A stretch of DNA of 64,000 bases from positions 1 through 64,000 of IMG/VR virus record IMGVR_UViG_3300012153_000001; one strand, given 5' to 3'. How positions within the stretch are numbered: position 1 is the first letter of the stretch; each line of letters begins with the position of its first letter. Below the pieces are notes generated by a model that saw nothing but the letters and a program-made list of their open reading frames with translations, was not told the DNA's origin and ran no database searches. The position numbers were made by a program, and so were the translations under genes. Source of the DNA: a virus. This document shows, in pieces, positions 12,577 to 36,242 of the stretch.

Positions 12577-12612
12577 TACGCAATTTACACGCTCGCAAAA
12601 TAACGAAGAGGA

Positions 12613-13035
12613 GTGATTTATATCGCACATGTTTCAGAAAGAGTCGGAAAGTATTCGGAGCTGGCGGCGCGTCTTGCGCTGCTCGCTAACGGATGGACCG
12701 TACACAAGGCGGAGACGGACGAAGCGTACGATATCCTGGCGTGCGATCCATTATCGGGCGACTACGCTAAGATTCAGGTGAAGACGGTCAGACAGCGGAT
12801 GGACCGCGGCGGCGACCTCGTAGTTTATGCGCGGAAAGGGAACGGAACAACGTACGACTTATCCGACGCTGATCTAATAATTGGCGTCTGGGCGCAAGAT
12901 GGCGAAATGCCGCGCGTATTTATGTTCGAGAACCGATTATGCGGAGAGTACTGGGCGCGGGAAGCAAGCGCGAGTGAGCGTTGGGTTGAGCTCTCGTTAG
13001 CGTTGAACCGCGGATTAGTAACAGCGGCGGCCTAA
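12613..13035 (+). CDS. PD-(D/E)XK nuclease-like protein (Hjc/resolvase-like)
   Basis: E-x-YDILA...KIQVKT motif. The track start GTG 12613 overlaps the SD GAGGAG; ATC 12622 has ideal 8-nt spacing. Confidence 0.55.
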   Translation: MIYIAHVSERVGKYSELAARLALLANGWTVHKAETDEAYDILACDPLSGDYAKIQVKTVRQRMDRGGDLVVYARKGNGTTYDLSDADLIIGVWAQDGEMPRVFMFENRLCGEYWAREASASERWVELSLALNRGLVTAAA

Positions 13036-13109
13036 CGTAAGTAAACGGAGCAAGCGTAGTATTGGGCGGAGGTCCCAACGGACAGCCCACGAAAAGGGGA
13101 AACTCATTA

Positions 13110-14561
13110 ATGGCGAAACTTAACGTGGTAATTCCGGCAGTAGAGGTAACGGTGGATGGCGTGACTTATCGCAAGGTTGACCGCAAGGCGCAAGCGGGTG
13201 ATATCGTTAAGGCGCTAAATAATGGTGACGACATCGATATGGGCGCATTCTACGCGGTGTACGTAAGCTCAGACCGTGAACTCGTGTTTGCGGATGATAA
13301 CGGTGATGAGAGAGCGTATCAACTCAGAGAGAACTCGGATAAGTACGAAGTCTACGCGCCAATCTCCGAACCAGCCGCGGACACTATCACGTTCGAAGGC
13401 GCAACATGGCGCAAAGTCGACCGCGATGTCCGCGAAGGCGATGCGATTAAGTTTACGGGTAAGGGACGCCGCAGCTACTTGACTGGTGCGGAGCTGTACG
13501 TTGTTGACCGCGTAGATTCGTGCGACGATCCGCAAATTACGGATGACGACGGAGATGATTACGACGCGGGCAGCGCTGATTACGAAGTCTACGAGAAGGT
13601 TGCGGAAGAGAAGACGCAAGTCACTACACCTCAGTATCGCGAGGTTAAGCGGAAAGCTGACGTAGGTGAGCGGATTAAGATCGTCGATAGGCTCGTATGG
13701 GAGACACGTTATGCGAACGGAGATACCTTCGTTGTAGCAGAGGACGCGGCTGGTGGTGACGTCGTTATTAGAACGGAGAATTTCCCGAGAGTATGCGTAG
13801 TTTATTCCGAATACGTCGTACTCGAACCGGTAACCGCGGAGCCTGCGAAGAAAGCGGAGCCAGAACGCCTGGCCGTCGGAGATTATGCGCGGGTTGTTGA
13901 CGGAGAGAAAATAAACTCGGGAGCTCGCGTTGGAGACATCGTTGAGATACTCGTAGATGATAAGAGCACGGTGCCGTATAAAGTACGTACAATTAGCGGC
14001 TATAGGGTCGGAGACGAAAACTGGGCGCTTCCTTCCGCATTTGTCCGCGCAACAGACGAAGAGGTGGCGGCCGCTAAAGATCCGCGCAGTAAATTCGAGA
14101 TCGGAGACTACGTAAAGGTTGCGGTCGAATACTGCGAGCATAAGGTAGGCGACGTATTGAAGATTACGAACACAGCCAGCAGACACGATTTCTACGTAAC
14201 TAACGTGGCTACTAATCGTCTTGGGTGCATCGACGCAGACAAACTCGTTAAACTCACCGCAGCCGAAATCGCGGAGATCGAACGCAAGCAAGCGGAAGAA
14301 GCCGCTAAACGCGCTGAGGAAGCCCGCTGGAACGCGATCGGCCGTAAGGTGAACGAGTATAAACGCGGAGATTTGGTAAAGGTACTCGGAACTCTCGGCG
14401 GAGAAACCGAAGTAGGCGACATCGTGGAGGTATACGAAGGAGACGGAACTGACTCACCGATGATTTACGGTAATGATGGTTCAACATACTACGCCACGGT
14501 TGAGCTAATCGTTCCGGTAGAGCAACGTTTCGACCGCGTAGAGGAGGTGGACGCCGCATAA
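13110..14561 (+). CDS. Repeat protein, paralog 1 (three Y/W-R-K-V-D-R-K...GD-IK modules plus further xVGDxV repeats)
   Basis: ATG 13110 follows AAAGGGGA. Modules VTYRKVDRKAQAGDIVK, ATWRKVDRDVREGDAIK and PQYREVKRKADVGERIKIV...EYVVLEP. Confidence 0.7.
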   Translation: MAKLNVVIPAVEVTVDGVTYRKVDRKAQAGDIVKALNNGDDIDMGAFYAVYVSSDRELVFADDNGDERAYQLRENSDKYEVYAPISEPAADTITFEGATWRKVDRDVREGDAIKFTGKGRRSYLTGAELYVVDRVDSCDDPQITDDDGDDYDAGSADYEVYEKVAEEKTQVTTPQYREVKRKADVGERIKIVDRLVWETRYANGDTFVVAEDAAGGDVVIRTENFPRVCVVYSEYVVLEPVTAEPAKKAEPERLAVGDYARVVDGEKINSGARVGDIVEILVDDKSTVPYKVRTISGYRVGDENWALPSAFVRATDEEVAAAKDPRSKFEIGDYVKVAVEYCEHKVGDVLKITNTASRHDFYVTNVATNRLGCIDADKLVKLTAAEIAEIERKQAEEAAKRAEEARWNAIGRKVNEYKRGDLVKVLGTLGGETEVGDIVEVYEGDGTDSPMIYGNDGSTYYATVELIVPVEQRFDRVEEVDAA

Positions 14562-14570
14562 GCGCTAACC

Positions 14571-16433
14571 GTGCGGACTACAACGAAAGGAGTGAGCGCT
14601 ATATCACCGAAACTAACGCTAAACTTACGGCCGCCAGCGGATGACGAAGCGGCGGAACGGGTGGCAGACGCAGCTAAACGGAAGAAGGCGGCGCAGGAGA
14701 CGGACGAAGAGGCGATCGACCGCGTACTGCGGATGTCATTAACGGATAAGCAACGCGAGGCAATCGAAGGCTTACGGCAGGTATACGGATCGGGCGAAAC
14801 AGGCAATCGTCCGACTCTCCGTACCTCTGGCGGCCAAGTAACGAAAGAAGACGTAATCCGCGCGGCTGAACAACTGCAACGACAAAGGCAGACGGATCAG
14901 CGCGCGGAGAAAGTTGCGGAGACATTGCGGTCAAAGCCGGATAATTTCCACATCGTAACGGATGACGCGGAGTTACCTGCGTTCGTCGAGCGTATTCGCG
15001 AAGAGTGTCGGCGCCAAATGGCGGAGTGGCCGGATAGGTGGGCGATACTTGGCGTAAAATCGCTGACCGCGAATGACTTCGAGGGAACCGGAGTAGACAC
15101 GTACATTGACGTATCAATCGGATATTCCGTATGGCTTCCGTTACTGGACGAAGGGTACTACCTTCCGTATGGGCACGTTGACATGCGCGGAGAATCGGGC
15201 TTCGACTTCCTGGACGATATGAGCGCACATAAATCAACCGACCGCCAGCTCACGCGTTCAAAAGTTCTCGCGGCAATCACGCCTTATCTATCGCAACCAG
15301 CGCATGGCAAATCGTTTCATATGGGATCTGCGCGCTATGACTTACACGTTGCGATTAAAGACGGCTACGAGATTCACGGCTGCGTATGGGATTCGCTGGA
15401 CGCGATGAACTCGTTAAATGAGCACGAGGAGTACTTCGGTCTCAAACCGTTAACCGCTAAATACGGACGTTACTTCGGAATTGACGGTCCGGTCTATACG
15501 TTTGAAGACATGTTTGGAAACCGTTCGCCAGCTCCGTTCAGCATCGAACTCGTCGGAATCTACGCGATCAAGGACGTACTGTACGGTTGGCGCCTTACGG
15601 AATGGCAATTCGAACAGATGCGCGTTACGCCGTCCGCAGAGAAGCCGGGCAAGCTTCTCGAATGTTATGCGCAAATTGACTCGAAGCTTCCGGAGACAGA
15701 CGTATTCTTGGCGCGGTCCGGCTTCTGCGTTGATATTGACGGACTCGCCGCGTTAGAAACCGAGTTCGAACCGCTACTTGAGAAGGCTCGTGCTGACGTA
15801 TTCGAAGCGTACGAAATTGACGACGCGTTTGTACGTAAGATGGACCGCACGATCAACGCGGCTAAGGTTACGGACTGGATCGATAAGCAACGTAAGAGGA
15901 TCGCACGGAATGCGGAAGCTCAGGAGAAACAACTCGCGATAATCTCGGAATGTAAAGCCGCAGGGAAAACGCAGCTCAAGAAATATACGAACGCGGTCGA
16001 AAGGCTTGCGCAATTGAAGGCGGAGAATTTAGCGCCAGCCGACGAAGAGCACGCGCCACTTAACGTAACGGAGTTTTCGATAACGAACGGGAATCACCTT
16101 GCGTATCTGATTTACGATCACCTCGGAATACGCGACCGCACCGGACAGTTCAAGCGCGGCAAGAACCGCAGTACGGCTGCTGACGTCATGGAGGCGTATT
16201 ACGAAGAGGAAGAAGCGCTCAAGCCGTTGGCGACCGTGGCTGCGTACGAGAAGCTGCTAACAACGTATATCCAACCGATGTTAGGGAGCGCGGGCAAATC
16301 GTCCATTATCGAAGTGGATGGGCGCGTACACTCGGAGTTCAAAGCGGGAGGGACCGCAACAGGGCGGTACAGTTCGTCAGGATACAGCGGAAGACCGATC
16401 GATATATTACGCGAATTTGAAACGGAGGAATGA
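14571..16433 (+). CDS. Family-A DNA polymerase, N-terminal piece (3'-5' exo domain plus start of pol domain)
   Basis: Exo motifs NDFEGTG, YDLHV, YAIKD. Ends ...GRVHSEFKAGGTATGRYSSS+17 aa, right after the TGRLSS-equivalent motif. The start is uncertain (GTG 14571 has no SD; ATA 14601 follows AAAGGAG). Confidence 0.8.
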   Translation: MRTTTKGVSAISPKLTLNLRPPADDEAAERVADAAKRKKAAQETDEEAIDRVLRMSLTDKQREAIEGLRQVYGSGETGNRPTLRTSGGQVTKEDVIRAAEQLQRQRQTDQRAEKVAETLRSKPDNFHIVTDDAELPAFVERIREECRRQMAEWPDRWAILGVKSLTANDFEGTGVDTYIDVSIGYSVWLPLLDEGYYLPYGHVDMRGESGFDFLDDMSAHKSTDRQLTRSKVLAAITPYLSQPAHGKSFHMGSARYDLHVAIKDGYEIHGCVWDSLDAMNSLNEHEEYFGLKPLTAKYGRYFGIDGPVYTFEDMFGNRSPAPFSIELVGIYAIKDVLYGWRLTEWQFEQMRVTPSAEKPGKLLECYAQIDSKLPETDVFLARSGFCVDIDGLAALETEFEPLLEKARADVFEAYEIDDAFVRKMDRTINAAKVTDWIDKQRKRIARNAEAQEKQLAIISECKAAGKTQLKKYTNAVERLAQLKAENLAPADEEHAPLNVTEFSITNGNHLAYLIYDHLGIRDRTGQFKRGKNRSTAADVMEAYYEEEEALKPLATVAAYEKLLTTYIQPMLGSAGKSSIIEVDGRVHSEFKAGGTATGRYSSSGYSGRPIDILREFETEE

Positions 16434-16437
16434 GTAG

Positions 16438-16767
16438 ATGACTAAATATCTTTTGCCTCTCATTGACGGTGGTATCGTGAAAATTGAGACTGATTCGGAG
16501 TACTCGCCAGGCTGCGAGACGTGTGACTACGGAAGTTTATATATAAACGATTTCAACGTTCTATTGAGTACTGGAAATATATACGTCAGAGCAGAAAATA
16601 TGTACGAGTACGCATTGTCCGAGGGCTACTTAATGGAGCTCATTCTTCCGAATACAGACCTTATTAAAGGGATGACAGAGCGTGGGTTCTTTGAGTGGGT
16701 TGAGGAGAGCCTGCGAGGTAAGTTTGGAAGTCTAATCGATATTTGCGAGTTCAACGCTAATGCCTAA
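16438..16767 (+). CDS. Unknown 109-aa protein inserted within the split polA
   Basis: Strong SD ACGGAGGA 8 nt before the ATG. Visibly AT-richer than its flanks. No homing-endonuclease motif recognised. Confidence 0.7.
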   Translation: MTKYLLPLIDGGIVKIETDSEYSPGCETCDYGSLYINDFNVLLSTGNIYVRAENMYEYALSEGYLMELILPNTDLIKGMTERGFFEWVEESLRGKFGSLIDICEFNANA

Positions 16768-17848
16768 CATAACTGACGCTAATTACCACGCTATTGTCCG
16801 TAAGCTTATCGCAGACAACCGCAAGGTAAGACGCGGCCTCAACGCCCAGAATTTACCATCTAAAGGCGCAGGCAGCCGCGTCCGTAATCAATTCGTTCCT
16901 CGCGAAGGCTTCACGTTTGTCGGCGCCGACCTCGGGCAGATAGAGCCTCGAATAATGGCGCACATCATGTATACGAAATATAACGACAACTCTATGCGTC
17001 AAATCTTCGTAGACGGCGTCGACCTCTATACGACTATGGCGATGATGACGTTCGACTTGCCAGAAGAATACTGCGTCGACAAAGCGTACGATCCGACCGG
17101 CAAGTTCAAGCCGCGCGTAATGATGAAGACAGGCCAGCTCGCGGTGTCATACGATCAATCCGTTAAGTCTTTCGCGAAGAAGATGCAAGTTACCGACGAC
17201 GTTGCGCAGATGTTCTTCGAAAACTTCGACCAAACGTTTCCGTCGTTTAAAACGATGGTGGCCGATATTCGCGACTTCATGCGTCAGCACGGTTATGTAG
17301 AAACACTTTTCGGCCGCAAACGTCGCTTCCCGGATTATAAACGCGTAGCTGCGTCAGCATCGAAGAATGAGCAACGGTTGATCCGCTTGTACACTGAACG
17401 GAAATCACTCCGCCGCCTGACGCCGACCGATGCAGAACAACGAAGGATCACCGCACTGCAAGAGGAGATAGGCAAGCTCGCAGAGGATCGCGGTAATGTC
17501 GGCTACTGGGAACGTGCTGCCTTCAACGCGGTTATCCAAGGAACTGGCGCGGACATCCTCAAGCGCATTGGTATCCGTATGGCACAGATATGTCGAGAAC
17601 GCGGATGGGAGTTTAACGCGTCAATACATGATGAAGTTATCGTAAGCATTCCGGACGATCAAATGACGCCGGAAACAATCGCGCTTATTAACGAAGTGAT
17701 GACGAAGACTTCCGAGTTAAGCGTGCCGCTTACGACGGACATTGCGATACAAAAGCGCTGGATGATGGAGTATTCAGCGGACGAATGGGACTACGCGAAT
17801 AACCGGCCGTTGCCGGAGTTTGCGAATAAATACGGGGAGGCTGCGTAA
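16760..17848 (+). CDS. Family-A DNA polymerase, C-terminal piece (palm/fingers)
   Basis: GLNAQNLPSK (PNLQNIP equivalent), ADLGQIEPRIMAH (motif A), KTGQLAVSY (motif B), SIHDEV (motif C). The ATG overlaps the end of the inserted ORF. Confidence 0.8.
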   Translation: MPNITDANYHAIVRKLIADNRKVRRGLNAQNLPSKGAGSRVRNQFVPREGFTFVGADLGQIEPRIMAHIMYTKYNDNSMRQIFVDGVDLYTTMAMMTFDLPEEYCVDKAYDPTGKFKPRVMMKTGQLAVSYDQSVKSFAKKMQVTDDVAQMFFENFDQTFPSFKTMVADIRDFMRQHGYVETLFGRKRRFPDYKRVAASASKNEQRLIRLYTERKSLRRLTPTDAEQRRITALQEEIGKLAEDRGNVGYWERAAFNAVIQGTGADILKRIGIRMAQICRERGWEFNASIHDEVIVSIPDDQMTPETIALINEVMTKTSELSVPLTTDIAIQKRWMMEYSADEWDYANNRPLPEFANKYGEAA

Positions 17849-18748
17849 ATGGAACAGCGTAAATATACGAGTATTGTACGAATGGGACATCGCGATACTG
17901 TAGGAGTCGTTAAGGAAGGCGACTATATCACGGTATACGAAAAGTTGGACGGAGCTAACGCGTCGTTTTCGCTAAGAGATGACGGAGAAGTCCTCGCGTT
18001 CTCACGTAACACGCAGCTCTCTCCGGAAAATAACCTACGTGGATTCTACGAGTTTACTCGCGGTATTAATCCTTCCGCACTAATGCCAGACACTATTTAC
18101 TACGGAGAATGGCTCGTTAAGCACAAAGTCGATTACGGAGACAAAGCGGCAACGTTCTATCTGTTCGATATCTACAGCACTATCGACGAAGATTACGCGC
18201 CAACTGACGTTGTTATCTCCGAGGCCGCATGGTTGGGACTCGCAATTGCACCGATCCTATACGCAGGCCCTTACGTATCATTCGAACACCTGCAATCGCT
18301 GGTTGGGCGGTCTTCATACGCGGTAAACGCAGCAGGCGGCGAAGGCATCGTCGTCAAGAACGTTAATTTCCGGGATCAGTACGGTAAGCAAACGTTTATG
18401 AAGCTCGTTAGCGAAGAATTCCGCGAGATGCAGCCGCAGAAGGCTCCGCGTGATCCTAACGCTGTGGAAACGGTCGAGACGGCGTTCGTCAAAACGTACC
18501 TGACCGAGGCGCGCGTCGATAAGCTATTACGCAAACTCGTTGATGAGGCGATTATTCCGGAAGCGTTCGGACTAGAGGATATGGGCGTCATCCTGCGTGA
18601 GCTTGGCGGCCGCGTATACGATGACCTATTGAAAGAGGAGAGCGCGGACTTACCAGCGGACTTTGACGAGAAGGGATTGCGCAAGGCGATCGGAAGGGTA
18701 TTACCGGTACTTGTACGCGAAATTATTAACGGAGAGGTGGCTGCGTAA
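17849..18748 (+). CDS. ATP-dependent RNA ligase (Rnl2-like nucleotidyltransferase)
   Basis: Motif I YEKLDGAN, motif III YYGEW, motif IV EGIVVKN, motif V FMKLV. Confidence 0.6.
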   Translation: MEQRKYTSIVRMGHRDTVGVVKEGDYITVYEKLDGANASFSLRDDGEVLAFSRNTQLSPENNLRGFYEFTRGINPSALMPDTIYYGEWLVKHKVDYGDKAATFYLFDIYSTIDEDYAPTDVVISEAAWLGLAIAPILYAGPYVSFEHLQSLVGRSSYAVNAAGGEGIVVKNVNFRDQYGKQTFMKLVSEEFREMQPQKAPRDPNAVETVETAFVKTYLTEARVDKLLRKLVDEAIIPEAFGLEDMGVILRELGGRVYDDLLKEESADLPADFDEKGLRKAIGRVLPVLVREIINGEVAA

Positions 18749-19372
18749 ATGAACGAAATAGTAACGGTAATTGACATCGAAACAACCGGACTTGACCCGC
18801 TCACCGATCATATTACGGAAATCGCCGCCATCCGTGCGGAAGTTGGGTCGGGCAGTTACATCCGCGAGATCGGACGGTTCCAGACGTACGTTGCACTTCC
18901 GCTGGGTGTTAGGATTCCGGAGAAGATTACGGAGTTGACCGGAATTAAGGCGGAGGATTTGCGCGATGCTCCTTCGGAAATAAACGCTTGGACAATGTTA
19001 CAGCGACTGTCTCGGGGATCTCGATTAGTGGCGCATAATGCTCCGTTCGATCTCGCGTTTATTAGGCCGGTAATGCACCAAGGATTCGCCTGCACTCGCG
19101 CCATGTCCCGCCTAATTGATCCGGACGAGAACGCAAGCCTTGCGCCGACATGTGAGCGTTACGGAATCGCGCTTAACGGACATCACCGCGCTATGAATGA
19201 CGTGGAGGCTACGCTGCAGCTTTACGCAATCCTGCGGGAGAAAGCGGAAGTTAACGGAATCACATACCGCAATGTCGTCGTTGATAGCGCGGAACGGCCG
19301 CTGACGTATACGCCGCCTGGCGCGATTGTGCGTACGATTACGCGGAAACAACAAACTAAGGAGGCGGTTTAA
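18749..19372 (+). CDS. DnaQ-like DEDDh 3'-5' exonuclease
   Basis: VIDIETTGLDP, VAHNAPFDLAF, HRAMNDVEAT. Confidence 0.8.
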   Translation: MNEIVTVIDIETTGLDPLTDHITEIAAIRAEVGSGSYIREIGRFQTYVALPLGVRIPEKITELTGIKAEDLRDAPSEINAWTMLQRLSRGSRLVAHNAPFDLAFIRPVMHQGFACTRAMSRLIDPDENASLAPTCERYGIALNGHHRAMNDVEATLQLYAILREKAEVNGITYRNVVVDSAERPLTYTPPGAIVRTITRKQQTKEAV

Positions 19373-20422
19373 ATTACGGATAACCAACTAATCGCAAATA
19401 GAATCGCGGAGCAATTTACGGTATTCCTGAACGAGTGGCATTCCGCGCCAGAAGTGTACGACGACGCTCTCGACGCGCAGATTCACGGCTGGTATCAAAA
19501 CGTACTTACGGACAAATCACGCAAAGTATGGCCGCCGCGGAACATTCCGTACTTCTCGCCAAGCTCCTCCAACTCCGATGCACGCGGCCTCTACGAAAAG
19601 ATGCGCGGCGCTAAGCGTGAGTCATCCGACCGACCTGCGCATCAAGGACGTTGGGTCCGGATAGGGACGGCAATTGGCGATGTCATTCAGCGCGATATTC
19701 TGTTCGCGGAGAAACATTACGCACGCCATTACGGAGAGAATCCGCGCTTCACATTCGACCGTAACGAACGCGGCGAGCCGGTATTCGAGGACTTCGCTAA
19801 ACGCGGCCATATCGTTAATCACGGCGGCCAGACATTCGCGTTATATGGAACATGCGACGGAATCATGCAAGTTTACGTACCGGAGCTCGGCCGGACGGTG
19901 CGCGTCGGCCTCGAAATTAAATCGAAGCAAGGAACGTACTCCGCGACATCCGGATATTCCACGAGGAATGGCGCGAAGGAAGACCACGTTAAGCAATGCG
20001 TCTGCTACTCGATTATGTATGACGTTGACTTCTACGTAATCCTCTACGTTAACGCGAGTAAGAAGGCGTGGGCGATGCCTGACGTGGATATCGAAAAGTA
20101 TCCGGACATTGCGGCGTTCGGCCTGCATATTACGGATGCGATGCGCGGTGAAATGCTTGACCACTTCGCCGAAATCGTTGACGCTGCGAATAAAGGCGAG
20201 CCGCCTGCGCTGGATCTCGATAAGTGGTTATTCCTAGACTTCAAGCGGACGGTATCCTTGTCACTTTCGGAAGACGAGGTGGAAGCGTTAAGGCGCAAAG
20301 TAGCCGCGATTATGAGATCGAACCTGCCGGACTGGAAGAAGCGCGGGCCGGCGGAGGCGTTAGCGGATATTGAGCGGATTAGGGAGGAAGAGGCGGAGAG
20401 CCAAACGAAGGAGGCTGCGTAA
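19373..20422 (+). CDS. PD-(D/E)XK (YqaJ/lambda-Exo-like) nuclease
   Basis: CDGIM...VGLEIKSK motif. The first canonical start, GTG 19454, lacks an SD. The frame is open from 19373, where ATT lies 8 nt after AAGGAGG. Confidence 0.6.
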   Translation: MTDNQLIANRIAEQFTVFLNEWHSAPEVYDDALDAQIHGWYQNVLTDKSRKVWPPRNIPYFSPSSSNSDARGLYEKMRGAKRESSDRPAHQGRWVRIGTAIGDVIQRDILFAEKHYARHYGENPRFTFDRNERGEPVFEDFAKRGHIVNHGGQTFALYGTCDGIMQVYVPELGRTVRVGLEIKSKQGTYSATSGYSTRNGAKEDHVKQCVCYSIMYDVDFYVILYVNASKKAWAMPDVDIEKYPDIAAFGLHITDAMRGEMLDHFAEIVDAANKGEPPALDLDKWLFLDFKRTVSLSLSEDEVEALRRKVAAIMRSNLPDWKKRGPAEALADIERIREEEAESQTKEAA

Positions 20423-20424
20423 TT

Positions 20425-20637
20425 ATGAACGTACTCAAACGCATACTTAACGGAATTGCATATGTAGGTGTGACCGCCGCTACTCTATACGGCTTGATGC
20501 TGTGGATTATCCTGCTCGCGAATAGTGGGAATACGTGGCTAACTCGGATTGGATTTGCGTTAATCATTCTCGCGCTATTTATCCAGGGATACACGTCAGG
20601 AGGCGATAACAATAGCGAAGCCAAAAGCGCAGACTAA
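20425..20637 (+). CDS. Small two-TM membrane protein
   Basis: SD AAGGAGG. Hydrophobic YVGVTAATLYGLMLWIILL and IGFALIILALFI. Confidence 0.65.
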   Translation: MNVLKRILNGIAYVGVTAATLYGLMLWIILLANSGNTWLTRIGFALIILALFIQGYTSGGDNNSEAKSAD

Positions 20638-21148
20638 ACGTTACGCCGGACTCGACCTTTCGTTAACTTCGCCAGGCTTTGCGGTTGTGGACGTGAAGAA
20701 TCGCGTCCCTAAGTTAGTCGCCACATCCATCGTTAAAACTGACGCAGGCGAGGCGCGCCCGTTACGCTACGAAGTCATCGAAGCTCACGCGTTATTATTC
20801 TTCCGCGAACATAAGCCTGATTCCGAAATCATTCGTGAGATATGGCCGCCAGCGCGTAACTACGAACAGAACGATAAGGTTCATGGAGCATGGTCGGCGG
20901 TTGATCGCGCACTATCGCGGCTTGGCTACGAGGTTGCGGAGAATCTGACACCACCTAACGTTAAGAAACTCGTAACAGGAAACGGTCGCGCTGAGAAACC
21001 GCAAGTTGCGGAAAGCGTGCGGAAGATACTACGGCTCGGCCCTGATTACAAGTTCGCGTCCGGCTACGATGACTCGGATGCTGCAGCGGTAATTCTGGCG
21101 TACCTTATCCGCGAGAACTTAATTGATACGGAAGTGGCCGCGGCATGA
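20612..21148 (+). CDS. RuvC-like Holliday junction resolvase
   Basis: YAGLDLSLTSPGFAVV, VTGNGRAEKPQV, DDSDAAAVILAY. The first motif lies upstream of canonical GTG 20687. ATA 20612 sits 8 nt after AGGAGG. Confidence 0.7.
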   Translation: MAKPKAQTKRYAGLDLSLTSPGFAVVDVKNRVPKLVATSIVKTDAGEARPLRYEVIEAHALLFFREHKPDSEIIREIWPPARNYEQNDKVHGAWSAVDRALSRLGYEVAENLTPPNVKKLVTGNGRAEKPQVAESVRKILRLGPDYKFASGYDDSDAAAVILAYLIRENLIDTEVAAA

Positions 21149-21303: not shown

Positions 21304-21659
21304 TCGTCTACGCATCACGTACGGGAAATGTCGGCCTATTCGCGCGGCGTCTCCCTTATCCTACAGCTAAACTTACGGAGGATCTACGCGTAACTGAGCC
21401 GTTTATCCTCGTGACATATACGGATAAGATCGGAGAGGTTCCGTCCAAGACACGTGCTTTCCTCGCATATAACAACGAATACTTACGCGGCGTGGCAGCG
21501 TCCGGCAACCGTAATTTCGGACCAGCTTACGCACTCGCCGCGGATCAAATAGCGAAACAATACGGAGTGCCGATCGTTTGCAAGTTCGAACTGGCGGGCA
21601 CGCCTACCGACATACAAAAATTCACCGAAGGAGTGGACGCGCTTGTCAAGTACCTATAA
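21297..21659 (+). CDS. nrdI: NrdI flavodoxin-like protein
   Basis: MLVVYASRTGNV N-terminus, ~120 aa, immediately upstream of nrdE. Confidence 0.8.
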   Translation: MLVVYASRTGNVGLFARRLPYPTAKLTEDLRVTEPFILVTYTDKIGEVPSKTRAFLAYNNEYLRGVAASGNRNFGPAYALAADQIAKQYGVPIVCKFELAGTPTDIQKFTEGVDALVKYL

Positions 21660-23739
21660 ATATATCGAACTCAATAACGAGGTTACCGTAATGAAGGACG
21701 GTTTTTACCAACTCGAAAAGGATACGGAGGCCGTCGACGAGTTCATGCGCTTCATCCGCGATAATAAGATGCGGTTTGACTCCGTAATGGCGCGCGTTCA
21801 TTATATGGTCGACAACGGGTATTACTATCCGGAAGTCCTGGCGCAATATACTCCGGAGCAAATTACGGATGTTCACCGCATGGCTGACGACGCTGGCTTG
21901 CGATTCGCTTCGTACATGGCCGCGTTCAAATATTATACGGATTACGCGCTTAAGACTCGCGACAAGAAAACGTACCTGGAATCGCCAGAGGAACGTTACG
22001 CAATCATCGCGTTATACCTGGCTCAAGGTAATTACGAACAAGCGCGGGAACTTATGTGGGGCTACCTAAACGGAGTTCAACCGGCCACGCCTACGTTCCT
22101 TAACGCAGGCAAAGCGAGACGCGGCGAGATGGTATCGTGTTTCCTTACGGAGCTTGACGACAGCCTTAACGCAATTGGCCACGCACATAATACCGCGATG
22201 CAACTTTCGAAGATTGGCGGAGGTGTGGCGCTGAATCTATCGAAACTGCGCGGACGTGGCGAGGCGATTAAAGAGGAGGAAGGCGTAGCAAAAGGCATCC
22301 TTCCGGTCGCCAAACAACTAGAAATGGCGTTCTCATACGCGGACCAAATGGGACAGCGTAAAGGTAGCGGGGCGGTCTATTACAACATCTTCGGATGGGA
22401 CGTGATGGAGCTGCTTGACGCGAAGAAGATTAACGCGGATGAACGGTCGCGCCTTAAAACGTTGTCTATCGGACTTATCGTTCCGTCCAAGTTTATCGAG
22501 CTTGCGGAGACTAACGAGCCGTATTACGTATTCGCGCCATACACCGTCTTCAAAGCGTATGGAACGCACTTGGACGATATGGATATTAGCGCGATGTATG
22601 ACGAGTTGGTTGCGAATCCGGTCATTAAGAAGCGCGAGTTAAATGCGCGTGATATGTTGACGAAGATTGCGACAACGCAACTTGAATCCGGATATCCGTA
22701 TCTCATGTTCAAGGACAACGCGAATGACGGACATGCGCTGAAAGGCGTCGGTCAGGTGAAGATGTCAAACCTCTGCACGGAAATTTTCCAGTTGATGGAA
22801 ACTAATATCATCAACGATTACGGTGAGCCTGACGAAATCGGCCTCGATATCTCGTGTAACCTCGCGTCACTCAATATCGTTACTGCTATGGATTCCGGAG
22901 ATTTACGCCGCGCTGTTCATTCCGCAATGGACTCGCTGACCGCAGTATCCGATATGACTGCGATCGCCAATGCACCAGGCGTCCGCAAAGCTAACGATTT
23001 AATGCATAGCGTCGGCCTCGGCGCAATGAACCTACACGGTTTCCTTATGAAGAACCGCATATCGTATCAATCCGAGTTGGGACGTGAGTTTGCGGACGCC
23101 TTCTTCGCCGCGATCAACTATTACTCGCTGGAACGTTCGATGCAAATCGCTAAGGAGCGCGGAGAGTCATTCTACGGATTCGACCGTTCTGATTACGCAA
23201 GCGGCGCGTACTTTACGCAATATATCGAAAATGATTTCCGTCCGAAGTTCGAAAAAGTAGCGGATTTGTTCGCAGCTTCGGGAATCGTTCTTCCGGGACC
23301 TGACGAATGGGAACGTTTGGCCGCGGAAGTTAAAGAATACGGATTGTGGCACGCGTATAGACTTGCGATTGCACCTACGCAAAGTATTTCGTACGTTCAG
23401 AACGCGACGAGCTCCGTATTGCCGATTTCTGACGTAATGGAGACGCGGACCTACGGAAACTCTACGACGTACTATCCGGCTCCGTTCCTGGCGCGTGACA
23501 ATATGATTTCGTATACCAGCGCGTTCAATATGGACCAGCGGAAAATACTCGAAATGGTTGCGACAATTCAGCGCCACGTTGACCAAGGGATATCAACGAT
23601 ACTCTACGTAGACTCGAAAACGCCAACTAATGAACTCGTCCGCTATTATCTATACGCGCACAAACTCGGCCTTAAGTCGCTGTACTATACGCGGAATAAA
23701 CTACTGTCCGTAGCTGAATGCACATCTTGCGCTGTCTAA
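21643..23739 (+). CDS. nrdE: Class Ib ribonucleotide reductase alpha subunit
   Basis: 698 aa. PTFLNAGK, SCFL, NLCTEI, C-terminal ...CTSCAV. Confidence 0.9.
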   Translation: MSSTYKYIELNNEVTVMKDGFYQLEKDTEAVDEFMRFIRDNKMRFDSVMARVHYMVDNGYYYPEVLAQYTPEQITDVHRMADDAGLRFASYMAAFKYYTDYALKTRDKKTYLESPEERYAIIALYLAQGNYEQARELMWGYLNGVQPATPTFLNAGKARRGEMVSCFLTELDDSLNAIGHAHNTAMQLSKIGGGVALNLSKLRGRGEAIKEEEGVAKGILPVAKQLEMAFSYADQMGQRKGSGAVYYNIFGWDVMELLDAKKINADERSRLKTLSIGLIVPSKFIELAETNEPYYVFAPYTVFKAYGTHLDDMDISAMYDELVANPVIKKRELNARDMLTKIATTQLESGYPYLMFKDNANDGHALKGVGQVKMSNLCTEIFQLMETNIINDYGEPDEIGLDISCNLASLNIVTAMDSGDLRRAVHSAMDSLTAVSDMTAIANAPGVRKANDLMHSVGLGAMNLHGFLMKNRISYQSELGREFADAFFAAINYYSLERSMQIAKERGESFYGFDRSDYASGAYFTQYIENDFRPKFEKVADLFAASGIVLPGPDEWERLAAEVKEYGLWHAYRLAIAPTQSISYVQNATSSVLPISDVMETRTYGNSTTYYPAPFLARDNMISYTSAFNMDQRKILEMVATIQRHVDQGISTILYVDSKTPTNELVRYYLYAHKLGLKSLYYTRNKLLSVAECTSCAV

Positions 23740-23764
23740 ATACGAGAGGAGACTGATATCTTAA

Positions 23765-24727
23765 ATGACGAACATTATCCGCGCTGTGAATTGGAACCGA
23801 CCTGACGACGACTACTCCGAGGATTTCCTCGACCAGAACTTTATGCAAATATGGCGCGAGCACGAAATCCCGCTTGATGACGATAAGATGGCGTGGCTTG
23901 CGCTGAGTGATACGGAGCGTGACGTGTATAAGAAGGTGCTTGGCGGCCTTACATTTCTAGATACGGAGCAAGGTTCCGAAGGGATGCCGCTTATTATGCA
24001 GCACGTCGAGAGCGCGCAGAAGAAGGCGGTCCTATCGTTCATGGGCATGATGGAGCATATCCACGCGAAGTCTTATAGCGCAATCTTCGCAACGCTCACC
24101 TCTACGGAAGAGTCCGACCGCGTATTCGAATGGACCGTAGCCAATCCGTTCCTACGGCGCAAGGGCGAAATCATTAGCGGATATTACCGTTCCATTACGT
24201 CGCCTGAGCGCTTATACATGGCGATGGTTGCGTCGGTATTCCTGGAATCCGCGCTGTTCTATTCCGGATTCTACTATCCGCTATTACTCGCAGGACGCGG
24301 CAAGATGACGGCCAGCGGCGAGATTATCGATTTGATCATGCGCGATGAGGCGGTGCACGGTCAGTACATTGGAACACTAGCACGTGAGGTGTACGCTGAT
24401 CTTCCGCAAGAGTCGCAGGAGGCGCTTGACCGCGAAGTCGCCGTATTGCTGCGCCGGCTTTACGATAATGAGGCGGGGTATACCGTTGATTTGTACGCGC
24501 CAATCGGACTTGAGGAGGACGTGCTGCGGTTCCTGCGTTACAACTTTAATCGTGCGCTTATGAATCTCGGACGGCCTACGCATTTTCCCGACGAAGATAT
24601 CAATCCGATCGTACTCAACGGGATTAATACCGCGACGAAGATACACGATTTCTTCTCGAAGAAAGGTAACGGATATCAGAAGGCGGTCAATATCGTACCG
24701 CTTACGGATGCTGATTTCGCGGTATAG
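23765..24727 (+). CDS. nrdF: Class Ib ribonucleotide reductase beta subunit
   Basis: 320 aa. Di-metal ligand motifs EHIHAKSY and RDEAVHG. Confidence 0.9.
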   Translation: MTNIIRAVNWNRPDDDYSEDFLDQNFMQIWREHEIPLDDDKMAWLALSDTERDVYKKVLGGLTFLDTEQGSEGMPLIMQHVESAQKKAVLSFMGMMEHIHAKSYSAIFATLTSTEESDRVFEWTVANPFLRRKGEIISGYYRSITSPERLYMAMVASVFLESALFYSGFYYPLLLAGRGKMTASGEIIDLIMRDEAVHGQYIGTLAREVYADLPQESQEALDREVAVLLRRLYDNEAGYTVDLYAPIGLEEDVLRFLRYNFNRALMNLGRPTHFPDEDINPIVLNGINTATKIHDFFSKKGNGYQKAVNIVPLTDADFAV

Positions 24728-24737
24728 AACGGACACT

Positions 24738-24772
24738 AACGGAGGGCCTACGGGCTGCTCCGTTATTTTTTT
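24738..24772 (+). terminator. Rho-independent terminator
   Basis: AACGGAGGGCC-TAC-GGGCTGCTCCGTT followed by ATTTTTTT. Confidence 0.7.
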
Positions 24773-24779
24773 ATCTGCA

Positions 24780-24816
24780 ATGTCCCAATCTGCTCAATTC
24801 GTGTCCTTATATAGTA
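24780..24816 (+). promoter_or_regulatory. Copy 3 of the 36-bp element
   Basis: ATGTCCCAATCTGCTCAATTCGTGTCCTTATATAGT lies directly after a terminator and upstream of paralog 2. Confidence 0.6.
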
Positions 24817-24857
24817 TGTAAGACGGAAACACACTCAAACGAAACGGAGATGATACG

Positions 24858-25736
24858 ATGTCAAACGTTAATCAAACGTATCGAGAAGTCCAACGCAAAG
24901 CCAACGCAGGTGAGCGCATCAAGATCGTAGCCGCCGCGGTCACTGGCGGTAGTTACCACAACGGTGACGAGCTCGTAGTTAGTGCCGTCCAGCCGTCTGG
25001 AGTACTCGCGACACTTGCGGACGGATATCGCGCAGGTATCTGGCACCGCGAATACGTAGTCCTCGAACCTATCGTAGCTCCCGCGCCATCAAACGTTAAC
25101 CTCCCGGACCTCTTCGCACAATTCATCCGGGACAATGCGCCGGCCGTACGCAGCTACTTGGCGGAGGTTGATCCGGTTGATAGCGCGGAGATCAACGAAC
25201 CGGCCCCGCTGATACGCGCCAAGGTTATCGAAATGGCTCGCGAAAGGGTTACGGAGTTGGAGCGGCTCGGTTCTGATCCTAACGCGGAATTAGCGCAAGG
25301 TCCGTTCAAAACGAAGTTCTATAACGTAGAATTTCACGTTAACCGCGATAAACGGACAGTTACCGCATTAGTGCGTATGGGGCGGAGACGGAGCGGAGAT
25401 AAACCAGCCGCAGTAGGCATCGCTAAGGCCGCGCCCGACGACGTATTTAACGCAGACATCGGCAAGGCAATCGCGGCTGAACGAGCGCTCGGTCTGACGC
25501 TGACGGATGCGTTTGTGAATGCGCCGAAGCCGGAGAAGGCGGTACCTGGCGTCGTTATCCGTAAGATAAACGGAGCCCATATCGGTACAACTCGCGTCAT
25601 TGAACGGACAATATTGGACGGTACTAGATACGAATTTACCAACGGGTATAACTCGGAGATTCGTAACTGCGCGATTATCGACGACACCGACGCAGATTAC
25701 ACGGAGTCGGCCGCAAAGGACGGTGAAGCCGCGTGA
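24858..25736 (+). CDS. Repeat protein, paralog 2
   Basis: QTYREVQRKANAGERIKIV...EYVVLEP module plus a C-terminal VEFHVNRDKRTVTALVR...APDDVFNADIGKAIA domain shared with 29206-30444. Confidence 0.75.
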   Translation: MSNVNQTYREVQRKANAGERIKIVAAAVTGGSYHNGDELVVSAVQPSGVLATLADGYRAGIWHREYVVLEPIVAPAPSNVNLPDLFAQFIRDNAPAVRSYLAEVDPVDSAEINEPAPLIRAKVIEMARERVTELERLGSDPNAELAQGPFKTKFYNVEFHVNRDKRTVTALVRMGRRRSGDKPAAVGIAKAAPDDVFNADIGKAIAAERALGLTLTDAFVNAPKPEKAVPGVVIRKINGAHIGTTRVIERTILDGTRYEFTNGYNSEIRNCAIIDDTDADYTESAAKDGEAA

Positions 25737-25894
25737 CCAAAGACGAACTCATTATCGCACTCACAAAGCTAGATGCGCCAGGCAACGCGCAAATCCTCGT
25801 ATGGAGTGAAGACGGCGAGAGACTTACGCTTAACAACGAAGCTCGCGCAGTCTATGACGGAAAGTATGTTGTAATCGAGGAGGTGGGCGCGTGA
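25733..25894 (+). CDS. Small protein (53 aa), tandem paralog a
   Basis: GTGA overlap start. MTKDELIIALTKL... resembles the next ORF. Confidence 0.45.
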   Translation: MTKDELIIALTKLDAPGNAQILVWSEDGERLTLNNEARAVYDGKYVVIEEVGA

Positions 25895-26040
25895 CTAAGG
25901 CGGAATTAATCGAACTTATCGAACGCTTTCCGGATGACGCGGAAGTTTGCGTAAGAGATGTTGACGGAGACTCTCACCGAAATGTGTACGCGGTAATGTC
26001 CGGAGATAGAGTAGCGATTTGCTACGAATATGACCGCTAA
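25891..26040 (+). CDS. Small protein (49 aa), tandem paralog b
   Basis: SD GAGGAGG, GTGA overlap. MTKAELIELIERF... Confidence 0.5.
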   Translation: MTKAELIELIERFPDDAEVCVRDVDGDSHRNVYAVMSGDRVAICYEYDR

Positions 26041-26054
26041 AGGAGGGCGCAACT

Positions 26055-26201
26055 ATGGCGTATAAACTTGAACGCACCCCGACCGGATTCACCATAAGAA
26101 CCGCGCCAGCCGATCGTATCGAACGCGAACAGGCTGCGCGTGATTGGGCGGCGATTGCGCTAGTGGTTGCGGGATTGGTCGCGGTGTGGGCGCTCGTGTG
26201 A
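26055..26201 (+). CDS. Small membrane-anchored protein (48 aa)
   Basis: SD AAAGGAGGG. C-terminal TM WAAIALVVAGLVAVWALV. Confidence 0.5.
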   Translation: MAYKLERTPTGFTIRTAPADRIEREQAARDWAAIALVVAGLVAVWALV

Positions 26202-26228
26202 AACCTAATTTAACGAAGGAGTGATCGT

Positions 26229-26381
26229 ATGGAAGAAACGGTAACTATCGCAAAGTCGGAGTATGAACGCTTGGTACGAGATAGCGAATTTCTCGGCGCG
26301 CTAGAAGCATGCGGCGTAGACAATTGGGGCGGGTATAGTGACGCGTGGGATTTGATGGACGAAGAGGAGGACGCCGAGTGA
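26229..26381 (+). CDS. Small acidic protein (50 aa)
   Basis: SD GAAGGAG. Ends in a GTGA overlap with dut. Confidence 0.5.
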   Translation: MEETVTIAKSEYERLVRDSEFLGALEACGVDNWGGYSDAWDLMDEEEDAE

Positions 26382-26947
26382 ACGCAATCAACGTAAAATT
26401 CAAGCGCCTGCATCCGGACGCTAAGATTCCGCAGTATGCAACGGAAATGGCCGCCGGCTTCGATTTGGTGGCGGTAGAAGACGTAATCATCGCGCCGGGC
26501 GAAACTGCGAAGGTTCCGTTAGGATTCGCGGTGCAGATTCCGGCGGGCTACGAAATACAAATCCGGCCGCGTTCGGGAGTTTCCGCTAAGACGAAGCTTC
26601 GCGTAGCTAACTCGCCGGGTACGATCGATGCGGATTATCGCGGAGAGGTTGCGGTGCTTATCGATAACATTGCGCCAGTATGGGATGCGGCCGCTGGTTA
26701 TGCGTTAGATATCGAAGGTAAACCGACACATTCGCCTGTTCGCGGATTTCTTCCGGAAGGTACGTACATCATCCGCAAAGGTGATCGCATCGCTCAAGGC
26801 GTACTCGCCGCAGTATCCCGTGCATCCTTCGAAGATGTCGCGGAGGTTGACGATACGGAGCGCGGAAATGGCGGCTTCGGCTCGACCGGAACTCACGTAC
26901 ACAACGTAACTATTACGCCGCTGAATCGGAGTGTGAACGCAATTTGA
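26378..26947 (+). CDS. dut: dUTP diphosphatase
   Basis: AAGFDL, IRPRSG, NSPGTIDADYRGEV, GDRIAQ, RGNGGFGSTG. GTG 26378 follows GAGGAGG (the track ORF starts at 26345). Confidence 0.85.
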   Translation: MNAINVKFKRLHPDAKIPQYATEMAAGFDLVAVEDVIIAPGETAKVPLGFAVQIPAGYEIQIRPRSGVSAKTKLRVANSPGTIDADYRGEVAVLIDNIAPVWDAAAGYALDIEGKPTHSPVRGFLPEGTYIIRKGDRIAQGVLAAVSRASFEDVAEVDDTERGNGGFGSTGTHVHNVTITPLNRSVNAI

Positions 26948-27040
26948 TCAAACGCTATACCTACGCAATCATCACCGCTTACTGTATGACGGTTTGGGTC
27001 GGACTCGTAGTCCGGACGATATTACGATAGGAGGTCGCAC

Positions 27041-27262
27041 ATGATCGTAATCAGCGTTTACCTCTCGCTAGGTATGTTAATCGCAATGGCATTCGCTAAG
27101 TGGGGCGTGATTGACCCGGATGACGAAGGAATGCGCGAACTAGAAAGATCGCCACAAATGCAGCGCATGTTCTTGATTATACTCGCGCTATTATGGTTGC
27201 CACTTATATTGATCGGCGGAATCCAAGCGAAAATTACACGTAAGGGAGATGACGCGGATTGA
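27041..27262 (+). CDS. Small membrane protein
   Basis: SD TAGGAGG. Two hydrophobic segments. Confidence 0.6.
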   Translation: MIVISVYLSLGMLIAMAFAKWGVIDPDDEGMRELERSPQMQRMFLIILALLWLPLILIGGIQAKITRKGDDAD

Positions 27263-28053
27263 ACGTTAAGCTAATCGCACATACGCAACTATCCGAAGAG
27301 TTTAGGAATGCGCTATGGGACAGAGAGGACGCGGATGTAGACGTAAATGACCGCGCAGCCATCGCATTAACCGCAATCCGCACGTGTTACTCACCGCTCA
27401 AGCCTACGGAGATCGTCGCGCAAGAAGGCGAAAAGTACTTCGGAAACGCGGCGTCAGATGGCGCAGGAGGTACGGAAGCCGATCGATTGTTCCGCCATAT
27501 TACCGGATCAGGTCATACGTCAACTCTCGAACATATCACGTACACATTCGCGGTCGAAGACGTGAGCCGCGCACTCCTGGCGCAACTCACGCGTCACCGT
27601 CATCTATCGTTCAGCGTGCAGTCACAGCGCTATGTCCGTATGGGAAGCGCGGATAAGATTGGCGGATTCGATTACGTGACGCCTCCGAAAGTGGGGACGC
27701 AGGATGTTCCCGGAACAGATCGCTACGATGGTACTCGAACTCCATATCGCGGAGATCCGCTCAAGGCATACGAAGTGTTTGGGGAGTTTATGGCGGAAGC
27801 ACAACGAACATATGACCAACTTCGCGAAGCCGGAGTCCCGGCGGAAGACGCGCGCATGGTCCTACCGAATGCCGCCGCGTGTAATCTCGTAATGACCGGA
27901 AACTTGCGTACGTTCCTCGACTTTTACGCGAAGAGACGGCCGGGACGTGGTGCTCAGTGGGAGATTGCGGATTTGGCGGTAAGGCTGCGCGACGAGATCA
28001 TAAAGGTTGATCCGTGGTTGGCTCCATATTTTGATACGAAGGAGAGTGCGTAA
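27259..28053 (+). CDS. thyX: Flavin-dependent thymidylate synthase
   Basis: ThyX signature RHRHLSFSVQSQRY. Confidence 0.85.
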   Translation: MNVKLIAHTQLSEEFRNALWDREDADVDVNDRAAIALTAIRTCYSPLKPTEIVAQEGEKYFGNAASDGAGGTEADRLFRHITGSGHTSTLEHITYTFAVEDVSRALLAQLTRHRHLSFSVQSQRYVRMGSADKIGGFDYVTPPKVGTQDVPGTDRYDGTRTPYRGDPLKAYEVFGEFMAEAQRTYDQLREAGVPAEDARMVLPNAAACNLVMTGNLRTFLDFYAKRRPGRGAQWEIADLAVRLRDEIIKVDPWLAPYFDTKESA

Positions 28054-28263
28054 ATGAGCGAAGTTAACGTCTCATGGAATTATCACGATATTAATACGAC
28101 CTGTGACCGTCTTGAGAAAGACGCGGATGCTTGCGTACTTTATATCAAAGGCGATCCGGAGTATAAGGAGCATATCGGACTAAGCGCGGCGCAGGCGGAG
28201 ACTCTTATAGTAGACATCCGCAACATGCTCGATAAACTCTACGCAAAGGAGGACGCAGAATGA
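28054..28263 (+). CDS. Hypothetical protein
   Basis: SD AAGGAGAG before the ATG. Confidence 0.6.
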   Translation: MSEVNVSWNYHDINTTCDRLEKDADACVLYIKGDPEYKEHIGLSAAQAETLIVDIRNMLDKLYAKEDAE

Positions 28264-28427
28264 GACTTATCGGACAGTTAATCGCCGGCCTAATCACGCA
28301 GCAACTCGCATTACACATGTTTGACGCAAGCCCGGCCGAAGGTTATATCGCGTATATTCTCGGATGGATTCTCGCGAAACAAATCATAGCGGAGGTGACC
28401 GCAGATGAGCGAAGCCAAAACGGATGA
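28260..28427 (+). CDS. Small membrane protein (55 aa)
   Basis: ATGA overlap start. Hydrophobic. Below the track cutoff. Confidence 0.4.
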   Translation: MRLIGQLIAGLITQQLALHMFDASPAEGYIAYILGWILAKQIIAEVTADERSQNG

Positions 28428-28692
28428 TCCGCGCCAACTAGCCGAAGTCCTCCCGTTCGTACCGCGTCCCACTCCGGAATCAATCGCGCAGATGGAACTC
28501 GTTTCCCTACTCGAACGCTACGTAGACTTAGCGCGGTCAGGCGAAGTCACCGGTGTAATCATCGCGGCCAAGACGGAGAATGACGTGTTAACCGGCGAAA
28601 TCATGGCGGAAAGCGCCGGCGTCAATCCACGCGAAGCAACGTTATTGATCGAGGAATTACGCATAGTTAACTTTTACGAATACGACGTTTAA
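28405..28692 (+). CDS. Hypothetical protein
   Basis: SD GCGGAGGTG before the ATG. Confidence 0.6.
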   Translation: MSEAKTDDPRQLAEVLPFVPRPTPESIAQMELVSLLERYVDLARSGEVTGVIIAAKTENDVLTGEIMAESAGVNPREATLLIEELRIVNFYEYDV

Positions 28693-28711
28693 CAACGAAG
28701 GAGGCGGATTA

Positions 28712-29185
28712 ATCTCGCTAAGTATAATCGCGCAAATCATCGTAGCTTTATCCGTAGGACTAAGCGCAGTTAACGGAGTCCCACCGAACGAACCGATGCA
28801 ACCACCCGCAGTCTCTTCGCAGGTAACAGGCAAACTTGCGAAAGAACAGGCGGAGATTAAGGCGCATGACGACGCGTGGCAAACGTACGAAGCGACTGCT
28901 TATACGGCGTTTTGCTCCGAAGGATGTACGGGAATCACCGCGACCGGCCTCGACGTCAGCGAAACGACTACGTATAAAGGGCGCACGGTTATCGCAACTG
29001 ATCCGAAGGAGATCCCGCTTGGCACGCGGATAACAATACGGACTGCTGACGGTGGGGAAATCGCAGGCATATCGCAAGACCGCGGATCGGCGATTAAAGG
29101 CCGCAAGCTTGACGTATTAGTTGCGTCGGAAAAGGAAGCGCGCCAGTTCGGACGCCAGAAAGTACGCGTTAAAATCGAAAACTAA
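28712..29185 (+). CDS. Secreted or anchored 3D-domain (RlpA/YocH-like) cell-wall protein
   Basis: AYTAFCSEGCTGITATG...IATDPKEIPLGTRI...DRGSAIKGRKLDV. A signal/anchor peptide SLSIIAQIIVALSVGLSAV is encoded upstream of canonical ATG 28796. ATC 28712 lies 7 nt after GAAGGAGG. Confidence 0.65.
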   Translation: MSLSIIAQIIVALSVGLSAVNGVPPNEPMQPPAVSSQVTGKLAKEQAEIKAHDDAWQTYEATAYTAFCSEGCTGITATGLDVSETTTYKGRTVIATDPKEIPLGTRITIRTADGGEIAGISQDRGSAIKGRKLDVLVASEKEARQFGRQKVRVKIEN

Positions 29186-33797: not shown

Positions 33798-33812
33798 TCA
33801 ATTGCCACCTCC

Positions 33813-36211: not shown

Positions 36212-36218
36212 CGAGAGG

Positions 36219-36242
36219 GACCGGAGTTATTCCGGTCTTTTT
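36219..36242. terminator. Hairpin terminator
   Basis: GACCGGA-GTTAT-TCCGGTC followed by TTTTT. Confidence 0.65.

Follow-up and report, generated by a model that had tools for sequence, protein, structure and literature searches.

How is translation initiated on genes that carry an excellent ribosome-binding site and no suitably placed ATG, GTG or TTG codon? The question is raised by five genes in a 64,000-nucleotide (nt) stretch of virus DNA, referred to here as the window, which corresponds to bases 1-64000 of the 65,189-bp IMG/VR virus record IMGVR_UViG_3300012153_000001, a record with direct terminal repeats. Genes in the window apparently lie on the + strand throughout. The five genes encode a RuvC-like Holliday-junction resolvase (gene i), a membrane-anchored 3D-domain protein (gene ii), a Cas4-like nuclease (gene iii), a small PD-(D/E)XK-like protein (gene iv) and the N-terminal piece of a split family-A DNA polymerase (gene v). 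We consider it highly likely, from the anatomy of the sites and their comparison across related phages, that these genes are translated from the near-cognate starts ATC 12622 (gene iv), ATA 14601 (gene v), ATT 19373 (gene iii), ATA 20612 (gene i) and ATC 28712 (gene ii).

The nearest named relatives of this virus are Halcyonevirus phages of Paenibacillus larvae (Unity, Halcyone, Tripp and others), whose RuvC proteins share ~57% amino-acid identity with the product of gene i. Closer relatives were found as prophages or phage contigs in the genomes of Paenibacillus sp. ACRRY, P. tundrae, P. jamilae, P. tuaregi, P. sediminis, P. dakarensis, P. agricola, P. cisolokensis, Fontibacillus phaseoli and Brevibacillus reuszeri. 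The host is very probably a Paenibacillus-type Firmicute, since the closest relatives reside in such genomes; the strong ribosome-binding sites of the window agree with this assignment.

Ribosome-binding sites without a canonical start

Open reading frames (ORFs) were tiled across the window and each in-frame ATG, GTG, TTG, CTG, ATA, ATT, ATC and ACG codon was scored for a Shine-Dalgarno (SD) sequence, the score being the pairing energy of the 15 nt at positions -18 to -4 with the 16S 3' end. ATG, GTG and TTG are called canonical below, and ATA, ATT and ATC are abbreviated as ATH. A gene was flagged if it had no canonical start with an SD of -8 kcal/mol or lower, yet an ATH codon with a strong SD. 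This unbiased scan of all ORFs returned exactly five genes, the same five for which a preliminary description of the window had reported an SD sequence, an ATH codon in frame behind it and no suitably placed canonical start. All five pairs of SD and ATH codon are present in the sequence, and their features are as follows (spacings are aligned SD-to-ATH spacings).

12608..12617, + strand: SD of gene iv, GAGGAG-TGAT (GAGGAG 12608-12613), -12.7 kcal/mol, spacing 7 nt
12622..13035, + strand: gene iv, small PD-(D/E)XK-like protein, ATC start proposed (phrog_5018; weak PF11645 match)
14586..14595, + strand: SD of gene v, AAAGGAGTGA (AAAGGAG 14586-14592), -14.6 kcal/mol, spacing 7 nt
14601..16433, + strand: gene v, N-terminal piece of the split family-A DNA polymerase, ATA start proposed
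19358..19364, + strand: SD of gene iii, AAGGAGG, -14.1 kcal/mol, spacing 7 nt, inside the last codons of the upstream RNase_T exonuclease gene
19373..20422, + strand: gene iii, Cas4-like nuclease, ATT start proposed (phrog_1706)
20598..20603, + strand: SD of gene i, AGGAGG, -13.9 kcal/mol, spacing 8 nt
20612..21148, + strand: gene i, RuvC-like Holliday-junction resolvase, ATA start proposed (PF02075)
28697..28704, + strand: SD of gene ii, GAAGGAGG, -13.3 kcal/mol, spacing 7 nt
28712..29185, + strand: gene ii, membrane-anchored 3D-domain protein, ATC start proposed (PF06725)

Among the canonical genes of the window the median SD is -12.0 kcal/mol, and the spacing is 7 nt (34 genes), 8 nt (16 genes), 9 nt (19 genes) or 10 nt (8 genes); a spacing below 5 nt occurred in just 1 of 82. 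All five ATH codons are therefore one-base variants of AUG at normal spacing behind a strong SD, the arrangement that defines initiation sites of the infC/pcnB type. Such an arrangement is rarely found by accident: an SD of -12.5 kcal/mol or lower preceded 3 of the 1142 internal in-frame ATH codons (0.26%), and the ~10 ORFs lacking a canonical ribosome-binding site should by chance yield about 0.03 such cases, against the five observed. A search of the gaps of the window (33.5-34.1, 36.2-36.7, 37.8-39.0 and 9.6-10.0 kb, and both ends) yielded no further convincing near-cognate start.

The absence of a canonical codon upstream of the conserved N-terminus is clear-cut for genes i, ii and iii; genes iv and v have such codons solely inside or before the SD. 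One could instead suppose that translation starts at the first canonical codon downstream (GTG 20687 in gene i, ATG 28796 in gene ii, GTG 19454 in gene iii, ATG 12799 in gene iv, GTG 14661 in gene v) and that the sequence upstream of it is untranslated. This is the outcome of gene callers restricted to ATG, GTG and TTG, and the GenBank/RefSeq records of two P. larvae phages are annotated in this way. In phage Unity (L002, L027; MH460824 / NC_055031) the polymerase is annotated from GTG 31726, the nuclease from ATG 35729 and RuvC from TTG 36726. All three codons lie downstream of the conserved N-termini, those of the polymerase and the nuclease being 16-18 codons too late and that of RuvC being an internal TTG past the catalytic Asp. 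Similarly, the resolvase of phage Tripp (L004, KT755656) is annotated as a 76-residue fragment without the catalytic Asp. In the window, the downstream codons of the five genes score between -0.9 and -2.5 kcal/mol, which amounts to no SD, and they are not conserved, whereas the segments upstream of them are conserved as protein. Together with the observations on individual genes reported below, this makes a start at the downstream codons very unlikely.

Codons at the aligned starts of related phages

Relatives were obtained by protein searches; megablast of an 18-kb region against the phage collection gave no match. The comparison began with 12 loci of viral origin and 10 in bacterial genomes, each taken with flanks of 10 kb and labelled with an L-number, and a further 72 viral loci were added for the 3D-domain gene, 80 for RuvC and 14 for the nuclease. 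They span about 16 lineages of Paenibacillus, Fontibacillus and Brevibacillus phages and prophages, plus further viral contigs. Automatic start picking misfired at a few loci, where a wrong SD was chosen or SDs occurred in tandem, and those loci were judged by eye.

For all five genes the N-termini of relatives cover the segments encoded upstream of the downstream canonical codon, and the aligned codon lies behind an SD at the same spacing; the alignment with homologues that had been suggested as a check thus came out in favour of the ATH starts. The aligned codon is nearly always ATG, GTG, TTG, CTG, ATA, ATT, ATC or ACG, with the SD and the spacing kept. At the aligned positions, Leu is encoded solely by CTG or TTG, Val solely by GTG and Thr solely by ACG, although CTG and TTG together make up 32% of the Leu codons in the genome, GTG 17% of the Val codons and ACG 48% of the Thr codons. 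Because only the start-competent synonymous codons appear, the pattern is not one of ordinary exchange between Ile, Leu, Val and Thr. The set of codons seen here reportedly equals the efficient plus the weak initiation codons defined genetically in Escherichia coli by Sussman et al. in 1996.

ACG was observed at the aligned start, 7-9 nt after the SD, near polA in the P. larvae phages L008-L014 (e.g. L011:4977-5060), in gene iv (L006:2254, L007:1968, L026:2712) and in the RuvC gene (L026:8571, L104:1486), and no other start-competent codon is suitably placed in those cases. This suggests that ACG may also serve as a start codon in this phage group.

Three controls were examined. When starts were picked in the same way for 27 neighbouring genes at the same loci, the codons were mostly ATG, GTG or TTG, whereas the five focal genes were dominated by weak codons. 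In 400 kb of the P. tundrae chromosome, 3 of 367 ORFs were flagged, at least two of them artefacts; the corresponding count for the phage was 5 of 69 (Fisher p = 0.003). As a positive control, infC of P. tundrae and of Paenibacillus sp. ACRRY (L180:1255, L181:1255) has ATT 7 nt after GGAGGTG, with an SD of -14.0 kcal/mol. The conservation of the codons also bears on the possibility that the ATH triplets are sequencing or assembly errors in true ATG codons, which the metagenomic origin of this viral contig could suggest and which the preliminary description had named as a way in which corrected sequence might overturn its reading. This was not borne out: the same codons recur in independent assemblies, which include other metagenomes, sequenced phages of P. 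larvae and the genomes of isolates from several Paenibacillus species, and errors would not strike five start codons alone. The chance that errors explain the five sites is close to negligible.

The RuvC frame opens at 20564 and its first ATG, GTG or TTG is GTG 20687. The protein read from ATA 20612 matched PF02075 with E = 1.7e-12, residues 13-162 aligning with profile positions 3-146 of 148, and matched phrog_159 at 3.2e-22. GTG 20687 is residue 26, and a start there would remove the first catalytic Asp, which lies in the G-L-D-L-S segment. With a profile match beginning at residue 13, the claim that the catalytic segment lies upstream of GTG 20687 in a frame open from 20564 was upheld. At the position of ATA 20612 most relatives have CTG, whereas L018 has ATA, L017 has GTG, and L019 and Bacillus phage 268TH002 have ATG; the codon always lies 6-9 nt after a GGAGG-type SD. 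Across the 80 viral contigs, the RuvC start with the best SD was CTG in 19, ATC in 11, ATA in 10, ATT in 4, ACG in 6, ATG in 23, TTG in 4 and GTG in 3. In 29 of these 80 contigs no ATG, GTG or TTG occurs between the opening of the frame and the catalytic Asp, so that a downstream start would deprive the enzyme of this residue. Canonical starts were found almost throughout in a distant clade of Bacillus-phage-type RuvC proteins (MTSAKPIRILALDIS...), with ATG at the aligned codon; in the Paenibacillus-type clade the aligned codon is CTG, ATA, ATC, ATT or ACG. The RuvC start is overlapped by 26 nt by a 70-codon ORF (20425-20637) that has a good SD and an ATG and encodes a membrane-like peptide; few relatives have it (L019, L023).

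The frame of the 3D-domain gene opens at 28667 and its first canonical codon is ATG 28796. The domain itself was recognised by PF06725 with 45.3 bits, against a cut-off of 23.8, at residues 93-155. The hydrophobic N-terminal anchor is encoded upstream of ATG 28796, and both this and the lack of an earlier canonical codon from 28667, as first described, are evident in the sequence. ATG 28796 is replaced by ACG or missing in the nearest relatives. The distance from GGAGG is exactly 7 nt for ATC in the window, L005, L015, L018, L020, L022, L023 and L024, and for ATT in L006. In the DNA alignment the upstream region diverges; AGGAGGCG is invariant, the spacer after it is variable and ATCTCGC is again invariant, and conservation of the coding type follows. 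In 24 of the 72 viral contigs, ATC, ATT or ATA lies directly before the hydrophobic segment and behind an SD of -10.9 to -18.4 kcal/mol, canonical codons in those contigs being absent or having an SD no better than -6.5 kcal/mol. More distant 3D-domain relatives have ATG, TTG or GTG in most cases. Ser, Ala and Gly are abundant in the segment encoded at 28712-28800, SLSIIAQIIVALSVGLSAVNG, which is not preceded by basic residues and is similar to signal-anchor-release domains known from some lysis enzymes of phages. Such a segment would suit a need for the 3D-domain protein to be scarce.

In the nuclease gene, TAA 19370-19372, the stop codon of the upstream RNase_T-type exonuclease gene, abuts ATT 19373. 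The first canonical codon of the frame, GTG 19454, had been described as lacking an SD, in agreement with its score of -1.5 kcal/mol, and the conserved IA(N/D)(R/K)IAxxF segment is encoded upstream of it. The aligned codon is ATT in the window, L005, L007, L016-L018 and others, ATC or ATA in the P. larvae phages, L020, L022 and L026, CTG in L019, L023, L024 and others, and TTG in two lineages (L015, L025). The further nuclease contigs have ATT, CTG, ATC or ATA directly after the upstream stop. Nuclease relatives have their first canonical codon 15-76 codons further downstream, with no SD in front of it, which adds to the case against a downstream start. The RuvC and 3D-domain genes had been singled out as the strongest cases; both are well supported, and they do not stand alone, the nuclease gene being equally strong.

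The close apposition of the nuclease to its upstream gene could also be taken as a sign of recoding, in which the ribosome would read through TAA into the nuclease and shift by +1 into RuvC, the SD-like sequence acting as a frameshift stimulator. The exonuclease and the nuclease indeed share a frame and are parted solely by TAA 19370-19372, and RuvC, in Unity as in the window, occupies the +1 frame relative to the ORF preceding it. Yet no in-frame stop directly precedes the nuclease start in L020, L022 and the P. larvae phages; the stop overlapping the nuclease start in L022 is out of frame, and the SD and ATC are still kept there. The upstream neighbour of RuvC also varies, being the 70-aa membrane-like ORF in the window and a 323-aa nuclease in Unity, and in many relatives the RuvC frame opens just 2-5 codons before the start, at a TGA within GGAGGTGA. 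An intergenic gap of 19-46 nt precedes each of genes ii, iv and v, and the SD spacing of 7-8 nt matches that of initiation sites. Recoding therefore appears a most improbable explanation.

For gene iv, the report of GAGGAG followed by ATC 12622, with GTG 12613 overlapping the SD, was confirmed, and relatives have ATG or TTG at the aligned codon. The codon before the conserved A-H-x-(S/T)-E segment is ATC in six lineages (window, L015, L017, L019, L020, L025), ATG in three (L005, L016, L024), TTG in three (P. larvae phages, L018, L022) and ACG in three (L006, L007, L026), with an SD spacing of 5-10 nt in nearly every case. The corresponding pair of gene v, AAAGGAG followed by ATA 14601, was likewise found as described, with ATG or TTG at the aligned codon of some relatives. 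The KLTLNLR segment of the polymerase piece is encoded upstream of the first downstream canonical codon, and three codons ahead of the conserved K-L-(T/S)-L-N there is ATA or ATC in about ten lineages (ATC in L007, L015-L018, L023 and L024; ATA in L025 and L026) and TTG or ATG in five (TTG in L005, L020 and L022; ATG in L006 and L019). The P. larvae phages have ACG 8 nt after the SD of this gene. The family-A polymerase as a whole consists of two ORFs (14601-16433 and 16760-17848) split by a 109-codon ORF (16438-16767, phrog_20043), and Unity is annotated alike.

Probable weak initiation and the choice of the exact codon

The best explanation for the five sites is the known weak start of the infC/pcnB type, of which the phage would offer a new, unusually dense and deeply conserved example. 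A strong SD at the optimal spacing of 7-8 nt would position the 30S subunit, and the initiator formylmethionyl-tRNA would then pair with a codon one base off AUG, so that initiation would proceed at a fraction of the AUG rate. Formylmethionine would accordingly be the first residue of all five proteins. Selection may keep the weak codon in place, with the effect that long, strongly transcribed operons would deliver small amounts of dose-sensitive proteins; dose limitation is a likely purpose, judging by what the genes encode: two nucleases, a resolvase, a polymerase piece and a membrane-anchored cell-wall 3D-domain protein. In Staphylococcus aureus, conserved AUU and AUA starts behind extended SDs were demonstrated by initiation-site profiling and reporters, and the reporters indicated ~10% of the AUG level for such starts, with ccpN reaching as much as 30% in rich medium (PMC13009471).

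Across lineages the codon drifts among CTG, ATA, ATC, ATT and ACG and rarely reaches ATG, which argues for selection for low output, and hence for a weak start that would be actively maintained rather than merely tolerated. ATG was never reached in the nuclease gene or in the 3D-domain genes with an ATH start.

Several observations weigh against this reading or against the exact codons that it names. GTG 12613, inside the SD, and ATT 12616 are in frame just upstream of ATC 12622 in gene iv; GTG 14571 and GTG 14592 are in the frame of gene v, before or inside its SD; and a second in-frame ATA, ATA 20606, lies just 2 nt past the SD of RuvC. In L007 (same contig as L021), GGAGGT is present at 17770-17900 in the 3D-domain gene, with GTA and GCA as the in-frame codons at the usual spacing and no near-cognate codon there.

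The first of these points could mean that a non-canonical start is indeed used, at a neighbouring codon: GTG 12613 or ATT 12616 in gene iv, GTG 14592 in gene v and ATA 20606 in gene i. These codons are in frame and 3-9 nt from the named starts, and GTG 12613 is conserved in L015 and L006. They lie, however, 0-3 nt from the SD core, a range in which canonical genes of the window almost never start, and the canonical starts of relatives align exactly with ATC 12622 and ATA 14601. L016-L018 moreover have an in-frame TGA within the GGAGTGA of the SD, which cuts the GTG off from the frame of gene v and therefore excludes it as a start there. We regard initiation at the neighbouring codons as improbable, though slightly less so than a downstream start or recoding, and retain the five ATH codons named above, the choice in genes i, iv and v being made by spacing and alignment.

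It could further be asked if the five weak starts form a coordinated set responsive to initiation factor 3 (IF3), which would serve the phage as a timer or sensor, at the level of translation, for its functions in replication, recombination and the cell wall. The idea comes from the fact that all five carry the codon class that IF3 discriminates against and are laid out like infC of the host, and we consider it doubtful. If it held, the five outputs would not be attenuated constantly; they would increase in concert once IF3 is limiting with respect to ribosomes and mRNA, as in a flood of phage transcripts or upon prophage induction. An autoregulatory loop like that of infC is not evident in the phage. 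Searches for a phage-encoded cause revealed no tRNA gene in the window, hence no altered initiator tRNA, no match to the IF3 C-terminal domain in the phage record and no match to Rfam families in the window. Two regions of ~370-510 nt each, 33577-34090 and 36212-36580, have no convincing + strand gene and no Rfam match; the second extends the frame of the gene at 35351-36211 past single stops, and its translation appears non-coding.

Known weak starts and Paenibacillaceae phages

E. coli has two confirmed near-cognate starts, those of infC and pcnB (10.1101/063800). The phage sites resemble infC (AUU/AUA) and pcnB (AUU) of E. coli in having a near-cognate codon that lies behind an SD and is conserved in orthologues; translation is lowered at the E. 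coli sites, as it presumably would be in the phage. The E. coli cases are single chromosomal genes, whereas the phage has 5 such sites in ~93 genes, with a codon that drifts between lineages. The sites of cvfC1, ccpN, citZ and infC in S. aureus (PMC13009471) are alike in belonging to a Firmicute, in their strong or extended SD and in their conserved AUU or AUA start. They differ in number, four having been identified in that study, so that the density in the phage is many times higher, and the phage genes serve replication, recombination and cell-wall functions, with CTG and ACG also occurring at the aligned positions.

Full-text literature searches returned no earlier description of such starts in Paenibacillus phages or of their use across a phage genome. 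The paper on 48 P. larvae phage genomes describes start-codon scoring and does not mention non-canonical starts. If the five assignments are correct, about 5% of the genes of this phage would be expressed by near-cognate initiation, and the annotation of a widespread group of Paenibacillaceae phages and prophages would be affected, among them the Halcyonevirus phages that infect P. larvae, a pathogen of honeybees. The culturable P. larvae phages would provide a ready test system for weak initiation in this group.

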